64,000 nt of DNA. Origin: Desulfobacterales bacterium (GTDB lineage Bacteria; Desulfobacterota; Desulfobacteria; Desulfobacterales; UBA2245). Shown one piece after another: positions 6,940 to 16,462 of the stretch. Both the position numbers and the translations under genes were made by a program. The notes beneath the pieces were generated by a model. It was not told the origin of the DNA. It was given only the letters and a program-made list of their open reading frames with translations, and made no database searches. The stretch lies in contig JAXGZF010000008.1 of assembly GCA_040771865.1 (NCBI GenBank), forward strand, positions 84,722 through 148,721. Reading direction: 5' to 3'. Position 1 is the first letter of the stretch. Each line of letters opens with the position of its first letter.

Positions 6940-8154
6940 TCAGCAGACAGCTACTTTAAGCATTCTTTGAACTTTAACCAGAAGATAAACCAGGAAGAGC
7001 AGTACGCAGCCGTTTGCCGCCAGTACAACGCCAAGCACAAGACCCGGAAAGATGCCGGGAATCAGCATGGATGTTCCAAAGAGGATGGCAAGCACATTCA
7101 TCGCCAGTGTTGCCGTTGTAATCCGAACCTGAATTCCGGGTGCCGGTTCATCCGATTCGGGCGCTTTGAATGCCGGAATGACGATTTTAACTATTGCGGC
7201 AAATCCGCCGACGAGATTCAGAAGCCCAATCAATGCGGTGAGCAATGCGACCAGAATTCCCGGAATGATGCATGAGGCAATGCCCAGGGCCGCAAAAGCG
7301 AGTCCAAATATAACCATCAGCCGTGACCTCGGGAATGGGCCCAGGGGTGTATTTCCGAAAGCGATCATCTGAACGGCAAAAATTACCATCATCAATCCAA
7401 GCTGAGCGCTTCCGGAAAACGGCAGCAGTCCGAGGTTTACCGGAATCAGAAGAATTCCAAGAATCAGCATGAACAATCCGAGGACCAACAGAATGACATT
7501 GTCAATCGACACATCCGCTGTGGCAAGCAGCCCTGTTTTTTGAATGCCTGTGGATTTGTTCGAATCCGGATAAGCGCTGTGGATTTTCTGAAGGCTCAAC
7601 GAAAGATACAGAATGGCCAGGCCAAAGACCAGCGCGGCGGCGGCTGCCTGAGGGGTTGTGACCCGTTCCGGTTGATACAGGATCGCCGAAATGACAATGG
7701 ACAGGGTGTATACCAGCGCGCATGAGATGGTCAGATGACGGAAAATGCCTCTGAATTTGCGCCATGCCGGAAATTTGCTTTTTGACAGAAAGAGTTGCAG
7801 CAGCAGGAAAAAGCCACCCAGCCCGAAGCAGATGATCAACAGAATTCTCGAAACGCTTCCCATGGCGTGCGGAATAAAGCAGGTGACAATACCGATTGCG
7901 GCCGTTACCGCTCCCGCGATAATCAGAAGCCAGGATCTGGGTGCATCTCCAAACGGTGTTTTTCCAAGGGTAATTGTCTGCAAGGCAAACACGAACAAAA
8001 GCAGACCAAACAGCCCTTCTTCATAGTACGGCAGAATACCGGCATGAACCGGAAACAGGAGGATTCCCAGGATCAGCATGGTCATGCTGCCGATAAGCAG
8101 AATGACAACCTCGAGTGAGAGTCTGGAATCCTGCAAAAACCAGTTGTTTGCCAT
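6940..8154 (-). CDS. Polytopic membrane protein with two homologous halves
   Basis: About 12 hydrophobic segments; MLILGILL.PV..G.LP and G.TP.G..PRS occur twice; GAGG SD before MANNW. Confidence 0.75.
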   Translation of the reverse strand: MANNWFLQDSRLSLEVVILLIGSMTMLILGILLFPVHAGILPYYEEGLFGLLLFVFALQTITLGKTPFGDAPRSWLLIIAGAVTAAIGIVTCFIPHAMGSVSRILLIICFGLGGFFLLLQLFLSKSKFPAWRKFRGIFRHLTISCALVYTLSIVISAILYQPERVTTPQAAAAALVFGLAILYLSLSLQKIHSAYPDSNKSTGIQKTGLLATADVSIDNVILLVLGLFMLILGILLIPVNLGLLPFSGSAQLGLMMVIFAVQMIAFGNTPLGPFPRSRLMVIFGLAFAALGIASCIIPGILVALLTALIGLLNLVGGFAAIVKIVIPAFKAPESDEPAPGIQVRITTATLAMNVLAILFGTSMLIPGIFPGLVLGVVLAANGCVLLFLVYLLVKVQRMLKVAVC

Positions 8155-8332
8155 GAATCCGCCTCTTGAAATATGCGCCGCCGTTAACCCGTATGCATAT
8201 ATCAATTTCTCCGAATTCGAACAACATTCAAAATCAACGGCATGGATTGCCTGTCCGGTCCGATCTGGAATTGAGCAGAAGGCTGATCATTCGAGGAATC
8301 TCTATACTGGGACCGCAGCGAATTAACCGAAA

Positions 8333-8878
8333 TCATTTTGCCCATTTATCGGTCAGACGGAGGCAGAAAAGAACGATGCTGCCGATGGAAAGCCCGGCTG
8401 ACAGGATGATGCCGATCACGTTTCCGAAAATGCGGAACAGATGCGGGCGGGTGAACACGAGCCGATGGTCGGCGTCATTCTCCTGCCCGGCTTCAAGCCC
8501 GTTGATTCTCAGAATATAGCGTCCGGGCTCGGGAATTTCATAGCTTCGAATCGCCATCCGCACCTTTCTAAGACCGGACGTTCTGGCGTGAAACCAGGTC
8601 GTTCGGCCATCCACAGGCGTGCCGAAGCCCTGGCTTAATTCGTAGGAGAGTTTTCGGAACCGGCCTGTGAGAATCGGCCCTTCAATAGAAAGAACGACGG
8701 GGCCCGCCTCGGCAAATTCAATATCCTGCTGTTCCAGAATCGGAATGCGGAGAATCGGAGCCTGTCTTGCCAGCCGGACGAGGTTCAGAATAAAGATACT
8801 CACAAAGATCGTCGAGATGAGAAATGCCGGCACTGCTATCCAGAGTCCGTTCCGGTAGATGTAGGTTAGCATTGTCAT
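8333..8878 (-). CDS. Hypothetical protein with N- and C-terminal TM helices
   Basis: 181-aa ORF co-oriented with its neighbours; two hydrophobic segments flank a soluble domain. Confidence 0.6.
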   Translation of the reverse strand: MTMLTYIYRNGLWIAVPAFLISTIFVSIFILNLVRLARQAPILRIPILEQQDIEFAEAGPVVLSIEGPILTGRFRKLSYELSQGFGTPVDGRTTWFHARTSGLRKVRMAIRSYEIPEPGRYILRINGLEAGQENDADHRLVFTRPHLFRIFGNVIGIILSAGLSIGSIVLFCLRLTDKWAK

Positions 8879-8948
8879 ATTTTTTGCCTTTGCACAGGAC
8901 CGGCCGTGGAACTGACAGTCGCCAGCTCATGCCGCCGGTCCGCAGGTT

Positions 8949-9545
8949 TTAGTTCTTCTCAAGCCTTAACCAGACCTGGGCGTCATAGGGAACGCGTCCC
9001 GATTTCTTGTCCCCTGTATATAGCGGCACCTCGTCAAAACTGCCCACGAGCACTTTTTCCACGGTCACGCCTGCGATTTCATATCCGGCCTGTGCCAGAA
9101 CGGCCTGTGTCGCTGCCAGCACTTTTCTGTCAAAAAGAACGCGGGAAGCGTATGCGTTGATATCCATCGCAACGGGTTTTCCTTGGATTGCGTTCCATTC
9201 TGAATCCTGAAAGGCGGAAACGGCCAGATGCTGTGACAACCAGGGAAAGTCGATCAGCCTGCCGATAAACAAGGATGAATAAATTCCTTCCAGTCTTGGC
9301 GTTTCGGTTTTAGAAAACGCCGCTTTCAGAACCGAGACCATTTCATGCTCGGTGATCTGACAGTTCCGGTATTTTGAATGATGCGCACGCAGTCTTAAAG
9401 TTCGCCACGAATTGTTTGCTTCGACGCTGAGCGTGCATTCGCCGGCAGCAAACGAAATAATCGACACATCCCCGGACCATGCCATGTCGGAAAAACACAG
9501 AAACAGCACCAGGACCGAAATTCCTGAAACGATTCGAGGGGTCAT
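8949..9545 (-). CDS. Hypothetical exported protein
   Basis: Signal-peptide-like MTPRIVSGISVLVLFLCFSDMAWS; start chosen at 9545. Confidence 0.6.
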   Translation of the reverse strand: MTPRIVSGISVLVLFLCFSDMAWSGDVSIISFAAGECTLSVEANNSWRTLRLRAHHSKYRNCQITEHEMVSVLKAAFSKTETPRLEGIYSSLFIGRLIDFPWLSQHLAVSAFQDSEWNAIQGKPVAMDINAYASRVLFDRKVLAATQAVLAQAGYEIAGVTVEKVLVGSFDEVPLYTGDKKSGRVPYDAQVWLRLEKN

Positions 9546-9681
9546 TTTTATTTTTCCTGCCGCCGGGAAAAGGCACGATAAAATCAGTCTTATCCGGGCG
9601 TTTTTTCGATGGATCTTGTGAATGTGATCGGTCCACTTTTCAGAGTGATGATAGGCGAGAACGGCGTTTGGCGTCAATACT

Positions 9682-9843
9682 GATTGTTTCGTAAAAAGTC
9701 AAATTTCTGTGTAGCGAGGCATCCATCGTTCCTGCCGTACGCTAAAAGTACGTCTCGCTCATCGGTATTTGCGGCGCCTTGAACCTGAATTCGTTACATT
9801 GCCACCATGCCGCCCCTCAATTTTGACTTTTTACGGGAACGAC
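9682..9843. mobile_element. Miniature inverted-repeat element, family B
   Basis: Perfect 14-bp inverted repeats CGTAAAAAGTCAAA (9690-9703) / TTTGACTTTTTACG (9822-9835), non-coding interior; partial copy at 44271. Confidence 0.7.
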
Positions 9844-9925
9844 AAAACCAGGGGCTGCGAGATGTGCGTTCATCGCTGTAAATATTCAATGCGATGATTT
9901 TATCAACTTCCTTTAACAGGCGCAA

Positions 9926-10849
9926 TTATTCCATGCTTGGGCCAAAACCTCTTCCACTGCCAGGAGCGTAATCTCCATGCATCATCCCGCGATGGCCCAT
10001 GCCTCCCCAGAATCGGCTCCAAGAACCGATTTCCGATACATCCTTGGGCAAGGTGCGCGCAAAGGACAAAAGGTCGAGGAGATCTTTTTCGCTCCATTCA
10101 TTGATGATCGCCGAGGGCATTCTGGCACCGGGTTGTCCCGCTCTGACCTTGTGAATAAATTCCCACGGATTATTGCTGGCGATCGTTCCGACAAACTCCG
10201 GCTTTTCGGCGTCTCCAAAGTTGATTGCGACGCCGGCCATGCCGTGGCACATATGAGCGCAGTTTCTCCTGAAAAGATAGCTTCCCGTCCTTTCGTTACC
10301 CCCGACAGGGATGCCTTCATTTGTGACAAATCGGCTGGTATCGATGAGGCCTTTTTTTATAAAAAGCGCAAGATCCGCAATGTCATCCGCACTGATGTGC
10401 CCTGAAAAGTCGTGTTTTTTGGCTGCGGCTTTTTTGCCGAGCACGGACTGAAGCTCCTCGATGGACTTTTTCTGGCCGGCCTCATACACCCCCTTGAAGC
10501 CGGTGAAGTGGGATCCCTTGCCATAGACGCCGTCTTTGCCGAGATAATCCCAGCCGTGGCATTCCTTGCACCGATAGGTGTCATATCCACTGCGCTGGTT
10601 CGTGCTTTGCTCCATCCACAGCGGGTGGCTTTTCTCGGGTTTATTCGCATCCATCGCAACCTTCCACCAGTTGTCATAAAGTTGTCCGCCCCGGCTGATG
10701 CGTATCAGCTCATTTAAATGGGCATCTTGTTCCGGCGAATAGGGTTGCGAATACACTGGCGGCCCGCCCATCCTGCCGTCTTTCATCTGGGACCACGCGG
10801 CCATGCTGAAAATCGCCAAAATCGATAACGCAATGACAATTTTTTTCAT
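9926..10849 (-). CDS. Periplasmic c-type cytochrome, probably diheme
   Basis: Signal peptide; CKECH and non-canonical CAHMCH; GGAGG SD. Confidence 0.8.
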   Translation of the reverse strand: MKKIVIALSILAIFSMAAWSQMKDGRMGGPPVYSQPYSPEQDAHLNELIRISRGGQLYDNWWKVAMDANKPEKSHPLWMEQSTNQRSGYDTYRCKECHGWDYLGKDGVYGKGSHFTGFKGVYEAGQKKSIEELQSVLGKKAAAKKHDFSGHISADDIADLALFIKKGLIDTSRFVTNEGIPVGGNERTGSYLFRRNCAHMCHGMAGVAINFGDAEKPEFVGTIASNNPWEFIHKVRAGQPGARMPSAIINEWSEKDLLDLLSFARTLPKDVSEIGSWSRFWGGMGHRGMMHGDYAPGSGRGFGPSME

Positions 10850-11110: not shown

Positions 11111-11662
11111 TTATTTGCCGTAAAGGTTGGATGCGATGATTTTTTCAGCTTCCGCGCGTGCCTGGTCAAACGGGTCGGCAGCGATTTCCGACGCGGCCGG
11201 CGCTTCAGCGGGTTGAAAGAAAACAAAGTAGAGCGACTGGATCAAAAAGAACATCCACACGCCCAGTGCCCAGCTGAGCGGGGTTCGGGGCGATAAGAGA
11301 GCGATCAGTGCCCCGCCTCCCAGGGTGAGCAGCAATTCGGCCGCAAATGTTTTAAACAGGCTGCCGGGAAAACAGACCCCGCTTCGAATCCAGCCGAACA
11401 CCGCCAGGCACATGATCCAAAAGGCCGGCCGGCAGGGAAGGGTGAACACGAGAAGCAAAAAAGCCAGCAGCGGGAAGAAAATCGATATCGGGTTTTTCCC
11501 GGCCCACCGGCAGAACAGCAGCCCGTATCCGGCCGTCATGGCCCATACAAGAAGCGAGAGGGAAAGAGCGCGATAATAAAAGCCCCCGGTTGCGATATGC
11601 ATGATGAAGGTTGCTCCGGCGCATAAAACGCCAAATACAAGGGTGGTTCGAAAGGGTTTCAT
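11111..11662 (-). CDS. Uncharacterised integral membrane protein (5-6 TM) with a charged C-terminal helix
   Basis: Hydrophobic segments; tail DPFDQARAEAEKII; ATGA overlap with the PspA-like stop. Confidence 0.75.
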   Translation of the reverse strand: MKPFRTTLVFGVLCAGATFIMHIATGGFYYRALSLSLLVWAMTAGYGLLFCRWAGKNPISIFFPLLAFLLLVFTLPCRPAFWIMCLAVFGWIRSGVCFPGSLFKTFAAELLLTLGGGALIALLSPRTPLSWALGVWMFFLIQSLYFVFFQPAEAPAASEIAADPFDQARAEAEKIIASNLYGK

Positions 11663-12216
11663 GCGGGTTCTCCTTTCATGGCTTCCTTGCGTTTAATCAG
11701 TTCCAGCTCCACTTCCTCGGGACACGGTTCCTGGAAAAACGACTCGATGGGAGATGCCTTCAGAGAGGCGGTCCATTGTTCGGCATCTGTTTTTTGCATA
11801 AAGGCCGATGCCCGCAGCTGAAGGCGTTCAAACTCGCCGCGCTGACGCTCCAGACATTCGGAAAGCTCCCGGATCTGAAGGTCGATGTTCTGAATCCGCC
11901 GGCCGAGCTCGTCTTTCAGAGCCTGATGGGGTTTGAGCTTTTTGATCAGAACCCGGGCGATGTCGTCTTTTTCCTTTTCAATCGCCACGGCAAGGTCCTT
12001 TTCCAGATTGTCGCAGGTTTGAACGTTCCGGGCGTGATCGCGGGAAAGCGCTTCACGCCGGGCCTGAATTCTTTTGAGTTCCAGGGCCTTTTCATCCAGA
12101 GCCTTTTCCATTTCCCTAAGGTGCTGGCGAAGCAGCAGGGCCGGGTCCTCGATCTGGTCCATAACGCCGTGCATGTCGGCTTTGAACAGCCGAAGAATGC
12201 GGGTAAAAATTCCCAT
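11659..12216 (-). CDS. PspA/IM30 (Vipp1, ESCRT-III-like) family protein, 185 aa
   Basis: MGIFTRILRLFKADMHGVMDQIEDPALLLRQHLREME N-terminus, coiled coil, C-terminal VELELIKRK; AGGAGG SD supports start 12216. Confidence 0.85.
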   Translation of the reverse strand: MGIFTRILRLFKADMHGVMDQIEDPALLLRQHLREMEKALDEKALELKRIQARREALSRDHARNVQTCDNLEKDLAVAIEKEKDDIARVLIKKLKPHQALKDELGRRIQNIDLQIRELSECLERQRGEFERLQLRASAFMQKTDAEQWTASLKASPIESFFQEPCPEEVELELIKRKEAMKGEPA

Positions 12217-12263
12217 GATGTTCCTCCTTTTTGGATTAGATTCCTTTTTCCCGACAGGTTGTT

Positions 12264-13673
12264 TTATTCCTGACTCCGGATGGATTTGTAGCCTTCGTAC
12301 TGAAGGGCTTTGGACTGGACCGCCTGTTTCTGGCGGACCGCTTCGGCCTCTCCCTTGAAGGTTTCCTCGACCACTCTGGAAAGCTGGGGCAGGGCCTGAT
12401 TCAGGTTTTCGTTCACGGCGTCCGAACCCACCTTTGCGTTGAGCTCGCTCTGGCGGTCCCGGTATGCATCGATGCGGTCCAGGGCTTTTTTGCGGTCTCC
12501 GGATTTGATGTCGGATGCGACCTGCTCCTTGAGCCGGCCATAGTCGTCCTGAAGGACTTTTTTCTCCCATGCTTCCTTCTGAATGGAGGCGGCCACTTTT
12601 TCGGCATCCGGAATACAGGCGACCTCAAAGGCCGGGTTGAGAACGATCCTGTGTCGCGACCCGTCCGTCTGATAGTCCACGGCAATGGGGCCGAGTCGGT
12701 AAGTGGCTTCGGAATCGGTGGGTACCTGAAAGCTTAAAAACAGGTTCCGGCTCTGGCCGGATCCCAGCGTTCCCGGGTGGAACACGGCCTCGCCGTTTTT
12801 GTATTCAATGGGATAACCGGCGGCATGAGACAGCCTTACGCCGCCGGATACCGGCACGTGAACCGAGATCCCGCTGACGGCCACCATGCGGGTCTGTCGG
12901 CATTCATTTTCAAAGGTTCGGGCAAAGGCTGCCGGGTTGTCCAGAAAGTAATACCGGCCTGCGCCGCGGTCGGCCAGGGATGTCATCAGGTATTCGTTAA
13001 AATCCGTGCCAACGCCCACGGTGCTGACGGAAAATTCCCTTTCAACCGCAACCGAGGCCATGTCGCCCAGGGTTTTTACGTCGGTGATGCCCCGGTTGGC
13101 AAGACCGTCCGATATCAGAATCAGCCGGGCCGCATTTTTCCGGTTCTTGTCCGCCAGAATCAGGTTCAATCCTTCCTGAAGCCCTGCGCCCAGGTTGGTG
13201 CACCCGCCCGGCTCGATGCGGCCGACCGCTTTCTGAAGCCGGGCCAGATTGGCTGGATTCACCGGTGCCAGCGCGCTTTCCAGGTGTACCTCATCCGAGT
13301 AGGAGACCAGGGCAAAGCGGTCTTCGGCGCCGAGCTGTTCCAGAAGATTCCGGACTGCCTGGCGGGCGTACCGGATCTTGTCTCCGTTCATGGAACCGCT
13401 TCGATCCAGAACGATCACCAGGTCTACCGAGTTTGCCGGTGAACCGGATTCAGGCCCGAGAATATCGGCGGCGTTCAGAGTCAGGGAAAGCGAGACCGGC
13501 TGATTGGAGCCGACCAGTACCTTGTCCTGAACCAGTTTCCCGGAAACCGAAAGCCGGTCGGATGTGCCGGCAAGGCGGGTCGTCGTGCCGGCGAAACGGG
13601 CGGCGGCCGTCATGGCCGCGCCGGTCAGGGTGATCAGAGCGATAATGAGTAAAAGTCGAATCTTGGGTTTCAT
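12264..13673 (-). CDS. Exported or membrane-anchored VWA domain protein (YfbK-like)
   Basis: N-terminal hydrophobic segment; LDRSGSM (MIDAS DxSxS), GGCTN, ISDG, VGVG. Confidence 0.88.
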   Translation of the reverse strand: MKPKIRLLLIIALITLTGAAMTAAARFAGTTTRLAGTSDRLSVSGKLVQDKVLVGSNQPVSLSLTLNAADILGPESGSPANSVDLVIVLDRSGSMNGDKIRYARQAVRNLLEQLGAEDRFALVSYSDEVHLESALAPVNPANLARLQKAVGRIEPGGCTNLGAGLQEGLNLILADKNRKNAARLILISDGLANRGITDVKTLGDMASVAVEREFSVSTVGVGTDFNEYLMTSLADRGAGRYYFLDNPAAFARTFENECRQTRMVAVSGISVHVPVSGGVRLSHAAGYPIEYKNGEAVFHPGTLGSGQSRNLFLSFQVPTDSEATYRLGPIAVDYQTDGSRHRIVLNPAFEVACIPDAEKVAASIQKEAWEKKVLQDDYGRLKEQVASDIKSGDRKKALDRIDAYRDRQSELNAKVGSDAVNENLNQALPQLSRVVEETFKGEAEAVRQKQAVQSKALQYEGYKSIRSQE

Positions 13674-13784
13674 ACATGCCTCCTTTGTCGAGTTTTGGGT
13701 GAAGGATCGTGTGCTTTTGTCCTGATGCTATGCGGGAGTCCCGGGGATTGCAATTCAAAGAAATGTAAATAAATCGATAGGATA

Positions 13785-13801
13785 TTTTACATAAGTTTTA
13801 C
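13785..13801 (-). promoter_or_regulatory. Candidate OmpR/CpxR-type binding site
   Basis: Minus strand GTAAAA-CTTAT-GTAAAA, 11-bp period, between the divergent VWA operon and regulator. Confidence 0.5.
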
Positions 13802-13910
13802 TTTTAAACCCGATGGGCTTGGTGTAGGATAAGACCGCATTCTGAACGGAACCATCGGCGAAAAATGTAGAAAATCCGGTTTTTAAATGCCGCGATGAAG
13901 CGAGAAGATC

Positions 13911-14609
13911 ATGAAGACCTCCAAAGCCAGAATACTGATTGTGGAAGATGATCCGGCCATATTGCAGGGACTTTGCGATGTGCTGGTTTTTAACGGGTAT
14001 GAAACCTTCGGAGTTCCGGATGGTCTCGAGGGGCTTGAAGCCGCATCGAATCAGGCATGGGATCTGATCCTTCTGGATGTCATGCTGCCCGGTATGGACG
14101 GATTTTCCATCTGCCGGAAGCTTCGGGAGAAAAAACCTTCCCAGGCCGTTGTCATGTTGACGGCCAGGGGTTCTGAAGACGATATGGTCACCGGGTTCAA
14201 GGCCGGGGCCGACGATTATGTCAGCAAGCCTTTTTCCCTGCGCGAGCTTATGGTCCGTGTCGAGGCGGTGCTGCGAAGAACCGGAAAAAATATCTCGAAT
14301 GAGACCGTCGAATTCAGGGAAATCCGTTTTGACGGATGCAACCTGACCGCCGGTTTTCAGGGCCGGACCTGCGAGCTGACGCGCCGCGAGATGGATATTG
14401 TCGCCTATCTGCACCGGAATCAGGACCGGATTGTTTCTAAAAAGGAGCTTCTGACGCATGTATGGCATTATGCGGATGCGGATATCGAGACCCGCACCGT
14501 GGATATTCACATGCTCAAACTTCGAAAAAAGATCGCCTCTATCGCACCGGATCTGCCGTTTGTTCAGACGATTCGAGGCGAAGGGTATCGTCTGGAGACA
14601 ACATCTTGA
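13911..14609 (+). CDS. OmpR/PhoB-family response regulator
   Basis: VEDD, LLDVMLPGMDG, KPF; winged helix RTVDIHMLKLRKK, TIRGEGY. Confidence 0.95.
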   Translation: MKTSKARILIVEDDPAILQGLCDVLVFNGYETFGVPDGLEGLEAASNQAWDLILLDVMLPGMDGFSICRKLREKKPSQAVVMLTARGSEDDMVTGFKAGADDYVSKPFSLRELMVRVEAVLRRTGKNISNETVEFREIRFDGCNLTAGFQGRTCELTRREMDIVAYLHRNQDRIVSKKELLTHVWHYADADIETRTVDIHMLKLRKKIASIAPDLPFVQTIRGEGYRLETTS

Positions 14610-16462
14610 AACGCATCAATATCCTGATCGTTGTCTTTTTTCTGGCTCTGTCCGTGCCGTTGGCCTGGGTGGTTGTACGCACCTACCAGGGGCTGGCCCG
14701 GGAGGAGAGCGCCACTCTGCGCTATTTTGCCGATGCCCTGTTTGATTCCATGGAGCAGGAACTGGCCAGGTTTGTGCAGACCGAAGAAGGCCGGGCCGTG
14801 GATGAGTACAATACCTGGTACGTTCCCGGCGGGCAGAGCGAAAAACGCCTTTCGCCAATTTCCGGTATTCCGGATCAACCCTTTATTCTGGGATATCTTC
14901 AGAACAACCCGGACGGCTCGTTTCAAACCCCGCTGGCGGATGCGGACGGACAAAGCGCGATTTTTGCGCAGCTGAAGTCGGTCAATGAGATTTTTAACCG
15001 GAAGCGGTTTTCCGAGCCTGCCGATTATACGGCCCGGCGGTCCGTCGAGGTCAAGAAGGAACAGGCGCCTGCTTTTATTGACCGTTTCCTGGCAAAATCC
15101 CAGGAGCAGAAATCGTATCTGGGAAGAACCGGAAAACGGGTGGAGGAAATTACCGCCAGCCAGGCTTTGAACATTGCGCAAAGTCCGGTCGCAAAGGGCG
15201 ATTCGAACATGGACTTCAAGGATGAGTTGACTGCAAAGGATGCGGCGATGCCTCAAAATGAAGGCGAACCGAGCTTGGAGCGGCGGAAGGCCAGGCAGGA
15301 TGTTTCCGAAACGCTTGCCGGCGAGGGCTTGAAAACTTATCAGGTGGAAATGGCCCCCATGCAGTCGGTTTTCATTGATGCCGAACGCCTGTTTGTTTTC
15401 CGGCGGATCATCGTCAACAGCCGGATCTACCGCCAGGGCGCGGTGCTGAAGGTCCGGGATTTTCTCGATTACCTGATAGGACAGAATTTCGCAAACCAGC
15501 CCATGGCGCGGTTTGCCAGTATCCTTCTCAGCGCGACCGACAACGACGATACGGTCGCACGGGTTCAGGGCGGCGCCTCTTCAAAGGAACCACGGTTCGA
15601 GCTGACCCGCACCTTTCCGAGGCCCTTTTCGTTTTTGAGCGCCTTGCTTTCCTGCGACCGGATTCCGGCCGCGGAAAGCCGAAAGACCCTGAATCTGATC
15701 GTCGTGGTTCTGACTGCCGTGTTGACGGTGGGTTTTGTGGCGATTTATCAGAGTGTTCGGGCCGTGGTTCAGCTTTCCGAACGCCGGTCCCGGTTTGTAT
15801 CCAGTGTCACTCATGAACTCAAAACGCCGCTGACCAATATCCGCATGTATATTGAGATGCTTTCACAGGGAATGGCGCCCACGGTGGAACGGGAACAGGC
15901 GTACTTCCGCATTCTGGAATCCGAAAGCGCCCGGCTCACCCGGCTGATCGGAAATGTGCTGGATCTGGCCAAACTGGAGAAAAAACAGCGGACTTTTAAC
16001 TGGACGACCGGGGATTTTTCGGAAGGCGTCGCAGACCTTTCCCTCCTGATGGCCGAAACCCTGCGACAGGCGGATTTTGAATTTGAGGCGATTCAGATCG
16101 GAGAGCGCAGGTTTGCCTATGATAAGGAAGTGATGATTCAGGTGCTGATCAACCTGATTGAGAACAGCGTCAAATTCGGAAGGCATGCCGCGGTTCGGCG
16201 CATCACCCTGAAAGTGGACAGAAATGCGGACCCGATTCTGATATCGGTGTCCGACACGGGTCCCGGCATTGCCAGGCACGCCTTGAAAAAGATTTTTGAG
16301 GATTTTTACCGGGGCGATGATACGGCGGTCAGAAATACGGGTGGAACCGGAATCGGGCTGGCGCTGGTCAAAAAGTTCGTCACCGCCATGGGTGGACAGG
16401 TGAGGGCGGAAAACAATGCCGGCCCCGGATGCACGATCGTCATTTCATTGCCTGCGGCCTAG
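14606..16462 (+). CDS. Sensor histidine kinase with a large extracytoplasmic domain
   Basis: Two TMs; THELKTPL H-box; NLIENS, DTGPGI, GTGIGL; probable TTG start overlapping the regulator stop (TTGA). Confidence 0.92.
   Translation: MKRINILIVVFFLALSVPLAWVVVRTYQGLAREESATLRYFADALFDSMEQELARFVQTEEGRAVDEYNTWYVPGGQSEKRLSPISGIPDQPFILGYLQNNPDGSFQTPLADADGQSAIFAQLKSVNEIFNRKRFSEPADYTARRSVEVKKEQAPAFIDRFLAKSQEQKSYLGRTGKRVEEITASQALNIAQSPVAKGDSNMDFKDELTAKDAAMPQNEGEPSLERRKARQDVSETLAGEGLKTYQVEMAPMQSVFIDAERLFVFRRIIVNSRIYRQGAVLKVRDFLDYLIGQNFANQPMARFASILLSATDNDDTVARVQGGASSKEPRFELTRTFPRPFSFLSALLSCDRIPAAESRKTLNLIVVVLTAVLTVGFVAIYQSVRAVVQLSERRSRFVSSVTHELKTPLTNIRMYIEMLSQGMAPTVEREQAYFRILESESARLTRLIGNVLDLAKLEKKQRTFNWTTGDFSEGVADLSLLMAETLRQADFEFEAIQIGERRFAYDKEVMIQVLINLIENSVKFGRHAAVRRITLKVDRNADPILISVSDTGPGIARHALKKIFEDFYRGDDTAVRNTGGTGIGLALVKKFVTAMGGQVRAENNAGPGCTIVISLPAA

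Follow-up and report, generated by a model that had tools for sequence, protein, structure and literature searches.

This work deals with a cassette of five genes found in a 64,000-nucleotide stretch of DNA from a Desulfobacterales bacterium (GenBank assembly GCA_040771865.1, contig JAXGZF010000008.1, positions 84,722 to 148,721 of the forward strand), the whole of which is hereafter called the window. At positions 11,111 to 16,462 of the window, an operon encoding an exported protein with a VWA domain, a short member of the PspA/IM30 family, and a protein with six transmembrane (TM) segments lies back-to-back with a second unit, which encodes an OmpR-type response regulator and a sensor histidine kinase. 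That these five genes make up one conserved unit is supported, and it seems to us fairly probable that they constitute a self-contained envelope module of the PspA type, controlled by its own two-component system.

Conservation and Distribution of the Cassette

Relatives of the short PspA that have about 185 amino acids (aa) number 231 among 574 candidates, and a scan limited to one genome per species found 164 places where such a protein is encoded. The counts that follow use the best 80 of these 164 loci, all of them titled either Desulfobacterota or "delta proteobacterium". The gene for the six-TM protein comes next after that for PspA in every one of the 80, and an ortholog of the VWA gene precedes PspA in 78, the two misses being loci where the contig ends 65 and 219 nucleotides (nt) upstream of PspA. 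On the other side of the intergenic region, 66 loci leave room for a regulator gene, and 55 of them have a divergent ortholog of it adjoining the operon (50 of 60 according to a stricter script, which dropped three loci via over-long calls of open reading frames, ORFs), and the gene that follows encodes a kinase with an orthologous ectodomain in all loci with room for it (52/52). Regarding the 11 loci that lack an adjoining regulator, their upstream genes are mutually unrelated and include NlpC/P60, HD-GYP-like, LacI-type, TrkA, TPR, and radical SAM representatives, among others.

The five-gene arrangement is far from chance and recurs across 80 loci whose flanks are variable. All-against-all clustering of the neighboring ORFs disclosed no sixth conserved gene, and the further clusters obtained are shadow ORFs of the five. 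An earlier reading of the window, made from its letters without database searches (hereafter, the sequence-only reading), had suggested that co-occurrence of the five genes across phyla be examined; their synteny is borne out by the 80 loci, but their spread across phyla is not, as every named locus belongs to Desulfobacterota. A divergent relative of the six-TM protein, P0389, comes from Desulfobacterales too.

Co-occurrence at the level of entire genomes was assessed in a sample of 401 genomes of the phylum. The profile of the six-TM protein has strong matches (expectation value, E, ≤ 1e-56) in seven genomes, including that of the window, plus two weak partial matches, and the profile of the kinase ectodomain matches strongly in the same seven. 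The latter profile also matches three more genomes, G108, G261, and G339, which belong to the same family, and two further genomes weakly and over the N-terminal part only. With about 2% of the sample carrying it, the cassette is patchy in its distribution, and one half is rarely encountered without the other. In five genomes the operon has no kinase pair next to it, and four of these encode a full-length ortholog of the ectodomain elsewhere.

A Conserved Operator Ahead of the Operon

The region between the VWA and regulator genes was compared in 55 instances, i.e., in 54 loci and in the window. The sequence TTTGAATTG occurs in 54 of the 55, and the single miss, L047, carries TTTTAATTG, with one base different; in 20 shuffles, no 8-mer occurred more than seven times. 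When the regions are anchored on TTTGAATTG, a common architecture emerges, made of AAAG[TC]AAAA, three bases, and TATG[TC]AAAA, i.e., two boxes with a period of 11 bp. On the 3' side of this double box there are about 13 variable bases, an inverted copy of the box, TTTT[AG]CA, and then TTCTTTGAATTG, with a TAnAAT-like hexamer approximately 16−17 bases beyond it.

Regulators of the OmpR/PhoB type bind tandem direct repeats that are one helical turn apart, and the boxes at positions 13785-13803 of the window are a putative binding site for the OmpR-type regulator. Their sequence, GTAAA-ACTTAT-GTAAA (13800-13785), has the form GTAAA-N6-GTAAA and fits the definition reported for the CpxR site of Escherichia coli, GTAAA-N4−8-GTAAA (PMC3158067), which is a likeness of the site and no proof of kinship.

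The full motif has a fixed orientation and distance with respect to the start of the VWA gene and a variable distance with respect to the regulator gene: the block lies mostly 82−150 nt ahead of the former and anywhere from 80 to 524 nt from the latter, and for this reason it is considered to be placed with respect to the operon. In addition, of the 11 loci that have no kinase pair next to the operon, 9 keep it upstream of the VWA gene, eight times as an exact copy and once with TTTGCATTG, while at this position it was not found in L006 and L039, the latter having a truncated VWA gene. Conversely, in G403 and G404, whose kinase pair and operon are at separate places, three loci have just the double box, about 50 nt ahead of the regulator gene. 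The double box is also found beside the regulator gene in G108, G261, and G339, the three genomes without the operon, and G108 keeps the entire promoter block, about 215 nt before a gene for an fmt-like protein. At the loci concerned (L094, L096, and L095, the last being G108:C77:9713-12730, about 1500-1560), the next gene encodes an fmt-like formyltransferase and is followed by one for a transporter of the major facilitator superfamily.

Within the 2.98-Mb genome of the window itself, the double-box pattern with one mismatch allowed has a single match, which is exact and located at the VWA promoter. The reversed control pattern likewise matches once, so that chance sites are about as common and no second real site is evident. 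A scan with the sigma-70 consensus returned no promoter in the intergenic region, and the promoter proposed here rests on conservation; by inspection, it looks −35/−10-like with no obvious −24/−12 element.

Taken as sequence evidence, the conserved operator, which follows both partners when they are separated, supports a tie between the regulator pair and the operon. The sequence-only reading had attributed control of the operon to the two-component pair, and the behavior of the operator speaks in favor of it; induction itself is a further step, in that the regulator would presumably activate the operon rather than repress it.

The Short PspA and Its Predicted Membrane Partner

The short PspA matches PF04012 (PspA_IM30) with 51.7 bits against a cutoff of 33.9, and it is the sole match to this family in the genome of the window. 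A profile built from 26 orthologous sequences aligns with the solved Vipp1/PspA proteins over residues 1−165 (E 1.9e-9); the alignment starts at residue 1 and spans helix α0 and the hairpin region 24−142, and the N-terminus is conserved in 26/26 sequences. In Vipp1, as described by Liu et al. (PMC8281802), the α1/α2-3 hairpin comprises aa 24−142, and the hairpins pack side by side in the polymer. The C-terminus consists of a variable linker followed by a conserved acidic motif, EEEVELELLxRKEA, which is helical according to the family alignment. Polymerization of the short PspA would be expected in this system by analogy with these relatives. In another genome, G405, which has the cassette with no match to the sensor, the locus L102 (G405:C1:3768532-3772056) encodes a second and longer PspA, in a frame of 237 aa that matches the short-PspA profile with E 4e-13.

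The six-TM protein belongs to a family without a name. The protein of the window has no NCBIfam match, none of 67 members matches a Pfam family at E ≤ 1, and the best row of a Foldseek search against the PDB had E 0.31, so that none reached 0.001. The same searches (Pfam with 67 orthologs, and Foldseek) gave no match to a LiaI-type family, remote homology being possible. One database contains at least 876 members of the family, none of them named, and the clusters listed in the ESM Atlas are unnamed too; a search of 1.84 billion proteins yielded 753 cluster representatives at E ≤ 0.001. The AlphaFold2 (AF2) model has a predicted local distance difference test (pLDDT) value of 82 and contains helices at residues 3−24, 31−54, 58−74, 78−97, 102−122, 128−149, and 164−181, of which the C-terminal one (aa 163−181, motif DPFExARxxAExIL) follows a low-confidence linker. 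Since the N-terminus is basic and the spans are six, both ends are most easily placed in the cytoplasm (N-in/C-in). Invariant residues include R93, E109, P125, and Q142, along with F165 and A168 of the tail. Three of them, R93, E109, and Q142, are charged or polar and fall within the predicted TM helices 4−6, and their presence inside the membrane hints that the protein is more than a passive anchor.

Prediction of the complex between PspA and the six-TM protein gave a median score of 0.74, as compared with 0.00 for the best of three controls. Of 157 solved complexes, 116 attain this mark, and of 215 mismatched pairs, 2 do so; these figures apply only roughly here, as our own alignments were used. 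The three runs share 100% of the contacts, with a partner pLDDT of at least 82. In the predicted interface, residues 163−179 of the six-TM protein lie on residues 25−43 and 125−143 of PspA, i.e., on both arms of the hairpin close to where it opens, and the residues involved, D163, F165, A168, and A172 on one side and L29, L33, M36, and K43 on the other, are invariant or nearly so. No comparable complex is known to us to have been solved, so that a score owed to the training of the model seems unlikely. As modeled, the cytoplasmic tail helix probably docks PspA at the membrane, and the prediction agrees with the role of PspA anchor that the sequence-only reading had proposed for the six-TM protein.

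The Exported VWA Protein

The first gene of the operon encodes a protein whose residues 84−250 match PF00092 (E 2.2e-21). Residues D90, S92, S94, T159, and D189 are invariant in 51/51 orthologs, and we take them to be those of a metal ion-dependent adhesion site (MIDAS), in keeping with the definition DxSxS...T...D of this motif. All 51 orthologs have just one hydrophobic segment, at the N-terminus, whose end is like that of a signal peptide, and in most of them the N-terminus resembles a Sec signal that ends with AMA/Y. A lipoprotein signal, suggested by the sequence LVGC of many orthologs, was rejected, as the Cys falls within the hydrophobic core, and the protein of the window does not have it.

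Beyond the VWA domain, the protein has a β-rich part of about 100 aa and a conserved helical tail of about 115 aa, and these conserved C-terminal 215 aa match no Pfam family in the 51 members. The nearest solved relatives, for the VWA part only, are the archaeal ArnB (8s05), ITIH, and integrin I domains. One locus, L091 (G040:C11:55000-70000), has a second, YfbK-like VWA gene (PF12450, PF00092, and PF12034; 7058-8860, − strand) between the VWA gene and the regulator, and a gene for an ADP-ribosylglycohydrolase (9714-10532, + strand) between the regulator and the kinase.

The Regulator and the Sensor Kinase

The regulator combines Response_reg (PF00072, E 2.4e-29) with Trans_reg_C (PF00486, E 5.4e-21) and is of the OmpR type; its best NCBIfam matches are PhoB, MtrA, and CreB, all under the cutoff. 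The kinase has the HisKA and HATPase_c domains of Pfam, and its ectodomain, aligned for 40 orthologs, has a mean column identity of 52% and a variable middle. No Pfam family, Cache included, matches this domain at E ≤ 1 in the 40 members, and Foldseek gave weak rows, none of them at E ≤ 0.001. Its AF2 model (pLDDT 73.9) displays a long helix and two α/β modules, with low confidence at residues 136−172 and 192−243. The best long matches found by VIA-align are 7k5n_A (Z 9.2, root-mean-square deviation 3.5, 180 aligned residues), 9nia_A (Z 8.9), and 4jgo_A (Z 8.5), and its top 50 contain 11 dCache/CHASE rows with Z 7.5−9.2, interleaved with short helix-only matches. With moderate confidence, the modeled ectodomain can be described as dCache-like with a disordered insert of about 100 aa.

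Inside the variable, low-confidence insert, aa 157−190 of the kinase (window positions 15070-15180) contain the segment FADKYLD...YLGQxxKRVExITxxQA, in which E180 is invariant. This segment is a candidate for partner binding or regulation. Three kinases from genomes without the VWA gene, compared with a view to the contact between the VWA protein and the kinase ectodomain that the sequence-only reading had envisaged, keep the invariant KRVExIT loop and have lost the neighboring YLG.

Sequences of the kinase unit were found in a metatranscriptome of an anaerobic digester (X1), where three contigs of 152−250 nt, at least 99% alike, represent the junction of the regulator and kinase genes and the kinase gene (14546-16423, + strand). 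This data set has no cover of the VWA, PspA, and six-TM genes and shows neither induction nor silence of them. Another run, X4, gave no match to the cassette, and two runs labeled "RNA-Seq", X2 and X3, look like DNA and contain a relative of about 91% with the five genes on one contig.

Layout of the Cassette and Its Surroundings

The coordinates of the cassette are collected in Table 1. The layout of five genes described by the sequence-only reading was recovered in full, with all ORFs in place and on the expected strands, and the same is true of several of its statements on the single genes. The stop codon of the PspA gene and the start codon of the six-TM gene share 4 nt (ATGA), in line with the translational coupling that had been claimed, and the same overlap is seen in 53 of the 80 related loci. 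The extracytoplasmic region of the kinase, given as roughly 340 aa, measures about 336 aa between TM segments 6−24 and 362−380. The VWA protein, described as exported and with an intact MIDAS, does have a signal-like N-terminus and the five invariant residues listed above, and hydropathy assigns six hydrophobic segments to the protein credited with five or six. The start of the kinase is most likely the TTG at position 14606, which overlaps the stop codon of the regulator gene. NCBIfam makes an equivalog assignment for none of the five proteins.

Table 1. Genes and putative control elements of the cassette (window coordinates)
Feature	Position	Strand	Description and basis
VWA gene, first of the operon	13673-12264	-	469 aa, exported; ORF list and Pfam
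Short PspA/IM30 gene (ESCRT-III superfamily)	12216-11659	-	185 aa; ORF list and Pfam
Six-TM inner-membrane protein gene, unnamed family	11662-11111	-	183 aa; ORF list, hydropathy, and AF2
OmpR/PhoB-type response regulator gene, divergent from the operon	13911-14609	+	232 aa; Pfam
Sensor histidine kinase gene	14606-16462	+	618 aa from the TTG start; Pfam
Tandem regulator boxes AAGTAAAA-CTT-ATGTAAAA	13785-13803	-	G residues 11 bp apart; conserved in 54 anchored intergenic regions
Promoter block upstream of the VWA gene	13725-13770	-	Conservation alignment; putative promoter
Inverted box copy TTTACA	13769-13764	-	Within the promoter block
Invariant TTTGAATTG	13759-13751	-	Overlaps the −35-like element; intergenic alignment
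−35-like TTGCAA	13753-13748	-	Followed by a 17-nt spacer
−10-like TAGCAT	13730-13725	-	Sequence inspection
Ribosome-binding site AAGGAGG	13685-13679	-	Sequence inspection

Elsewhere in the window, three consecutive ORFs on the − strand (6940-9677), encoding a polytopic membrane protein of 421 aa and proteins of 181 and 242 aa, have no Pfam or NCBIfam match; they lie upstream of the gene for a two-domain c-type cytochrome (9926-10849).

Proposed Mechanism and Alternatives

In the reading that we favor, that of a PspA-type module under the control of its own two-component pair, the kinase would read a periplasmic signal through its dCache-like ectodomain and phosphorylate the OmpR-type regulator. 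The latter would bind the two G[TC]AAAA boxes, one helical turn apart and just upstream of a −35 of the sigma-70 type, and thereby switch on transcription of vwa-pspA-tm and, probably, of the operon that encodes the regulator itself. The C-terminal helix of the six-TM protein would then pack on the base of the α1/α2-3 hairpin and hold PspA at the inner membrane, where PspA could polymerize and protect or remodel the membrane, while the exported VWA protein would use its MIDAS on a periplasmic ligand. The stress signal and every role of the VWA protein are parts of this scheme that we infer.

Several observations weigh against this picture. Regarding the tie between the two halves, G405 has the operon and the operator with no match to the sensor, and G108, G261, and G339 keep the kinase pair and the operator, with the VWA, PspA, and six-TM genes nowhere in the genome. 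The kinase pair can exist without the operon, because these three genomes of one family hold the pair alone; their pattern looks like that of an operon that was lost and an operator that was left behind. The operator, in turn, could serve repression, or the autoregulation of the kinase pair only. As for the signal, dCache-like ectodomains usually bind small ligands, and the trigger may for this reason be some chemical and not damage to the membrane. On the effector side, the score of the predicted complex is a confidence of the model and not a measurement, and an anchor and a brake are indistinguishable by it. Finally, the Pfam match of the short PspA spans only positions 1−124 of the 220 of the profile, and the protein may lack the canonical helix α5, which binds the hairpin of the neighboring subunit and is reported to be needed for the polymerization of Vipp1 (PMC8281802).

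The question of the signal leads to an alternative that we regard as unlikely, namely that the cassette answers to a ligand or a cation in the periplasm and not to damage. Here, the kinase would sense a small molecule or an ion, the VWA protein would be the main effector and bind its target in a metal-dependent way through the MIDAS, and PspA with the six-TM protein would only buffer the membrane against the condition sensed. All the long structural matches of the ectodomain, i.e., the 11 rows of the VIA-align top 50, are ligand-binding Cache or CHASE sensors, with weaker rows from Foldseek besides, and the VWA gene, whose MIDAS residues are invariant in all 51 orthologs, comes first and is always present; moreover, a preprint suggests the existence of a cation-linked membrane-stress module in huge phages (10.64898/2026.10.24.761521). 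Nonetheless, the Z values are middling and no Pfam model of Cache is matched at E ≤ 1, so that ligand binding is not established, and the strongest links at the protein level are those between PspA and the six-TM protein, which are encoded together in 80/80 loci by overlapping genes and have a predicted interface.

A bolder reading, which we hold to be quite unlikely, would see in the cassette a device that works across the envelope. Here, the VWA protein would be a MIDAS-dependent periplasmic co-sensor of conditions in the periplasm or the outer envelope, with a CpxP-like feedback to the kinase ectodomain, coupled via the six-TM protein to the ESCRT-III-type polymer. The invariant and buried pair Arg93/Glu109 of the six-TM protein would be the coupling element, and a protein on the outer face would position the PspA scaffold on the inner face. 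If true, this would be a logic of PspA recruitment without a described counterpart.

Another alternative concerns the tail of the six-TM protein, which by analogy with the partner switching of the classical Psp system might act as a brake, capping the base of the hairpin and keeping PspA monomeric and inactive until stress occurs. The predicted interface covers residues 25−43 and 125−143 of the hairpin, and a helix bound there could compete with the side-by-side assembly described for Vipp1 (PMC8281802); yet co-induction of PspA and the six-TM protein, often translationally coupled and likely made at 1:1, fits a working complex better, and we find the brake very unlikely. Last, the notion that the kinase pair and the operon are mere neighbors, with the motif serving autoregulation of the pair or another factor, would account for the genomes that lack the operon but still have the double box next to the regulator gene, and for metatranscriptome contigs that fall on the kinase pair only, but it is hardly credible against a full motif that is fixed relative to the VWA start, variable relative to the regulator (80−524 nt), and kept with the VWA gene in 9 of the 11 loci lacking an adjoining pair.

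Relation to Known Envelope Systems

The module we propose can be compared with three known systems, and by analogy it is read as Lia/Cpx-like but unrelated to either. In the Lia system of Bacillus subtilis, the two-component system is reported to drive essentially one strong operon, which encodes a PspA homologue and a small membrane recruiter (PMC9239133 and PMC11237479). The cassette resembles LiaRS(F)-LiaIH in that the genome has only one operator site and that PspA is predicted to be anchored in the membrane by a partner. It differs in that the regulator is of the OmpR type, whereas LiaR is of the NarL/LuxR type, and in that the kinase has a periplasmic dCache-like domain of 336 aa, whereas the Lia kinase is an intramembrane sensor that works with LiaF. 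Furthermore, the predicted anchor spans the membrane six times and could be assigned to no family, an exported VWA protein is a constant addition, and the host, unlike B. subtilis, is a Gram-negative-type member of Desulfobacterota.

Similarly to CpxAR-CpxP of Enterobacteria, the genes for an OmpR-type regulator and a kinase diverge from that for an exported accessory protein, with tandem GTAAA boxes in the intergenic region. The proteins are not orthologous, as the CpxR model (NF008199) gives 129.5 bits against a cutoff of 341 and the CpxA model (NF007007) 106.7 against 486. The cassette further departs from Cpx in its much larger ectodomain, in having a VWA protein instead of CpxP as the accessory protein, and in a target operon that includes PspA, a protein Cpx does not encode.

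With the PspF-PspABC(DE) system of E. coli and Yersinia, the cassette shares a PspA/IM30 effector with helix α0 and the hairpin, along with membrane partners encoded beside it. In contrast to the classical Psp system, PspB and PspC are lacking, the promoter looks sigma-70-like with OmpR-type boxes and not sigma-54, and PspA is only 185 aa long, its Pfam match stopping at position 124 of the 220 of the profile. Searches of the 98.3%-complete genome gave no match to PspB (PF06667) or PspC (PF04024), both matched in control genomes, and none to LiaF-like_C (PF09922), which extends to the entire genome the lack of pspB, pspC, and liaF-like genes noticed by the sequence-only reading.

A full-text search of the literature on PspA contexts found no description of a cassette of VWA, PspA, and six-TM genes with a kinase pair. 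Two surveys of such contexts, those of Ravi et al. (PMC11237479, 2024) and Popp et al. (PMC9239133, 2022), have no vWA or von Willebrand in their main texts or text supplements, a statement that does not cover the web application and the external data sets. Huge phages are reported to carry TerD and VWA genes between those for PspA and a Ca-ATPase (10.64898/2026.10.24.761521), which is a different context. The claim that the system was undescribed holds, then, for the literature searched, but has to be tempered, as the cassette is a variant of the PspA modules controlled by two-component systems, such as Lia.

Implications

The cassette contains two unnamed protein families. To our knowledge, PspA, Vipp1, and ESCRT-III proteins are universal membrane-repair polymers whose recruitment is understood for only a few models, namely PspBC and LiaI. 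Against this background, the six-TM protein, with a 20-residue tail predicted to grip the hairpin of PspA, would be a new and small partner for PspA recruitment, and the kinase would bring a new family of periplasmic sensor domains. The constant presence of an exported VWA partner and a compact regulon with one promoter, which could be transferred to a reporter strain, would be further features of interest. Overall, the module would provide a read-out of envelope stress for Desulfobacterota, in which the classical Psp partners are missing, and it would extend the known modes of control of bacterial ESCRT-III proteins.

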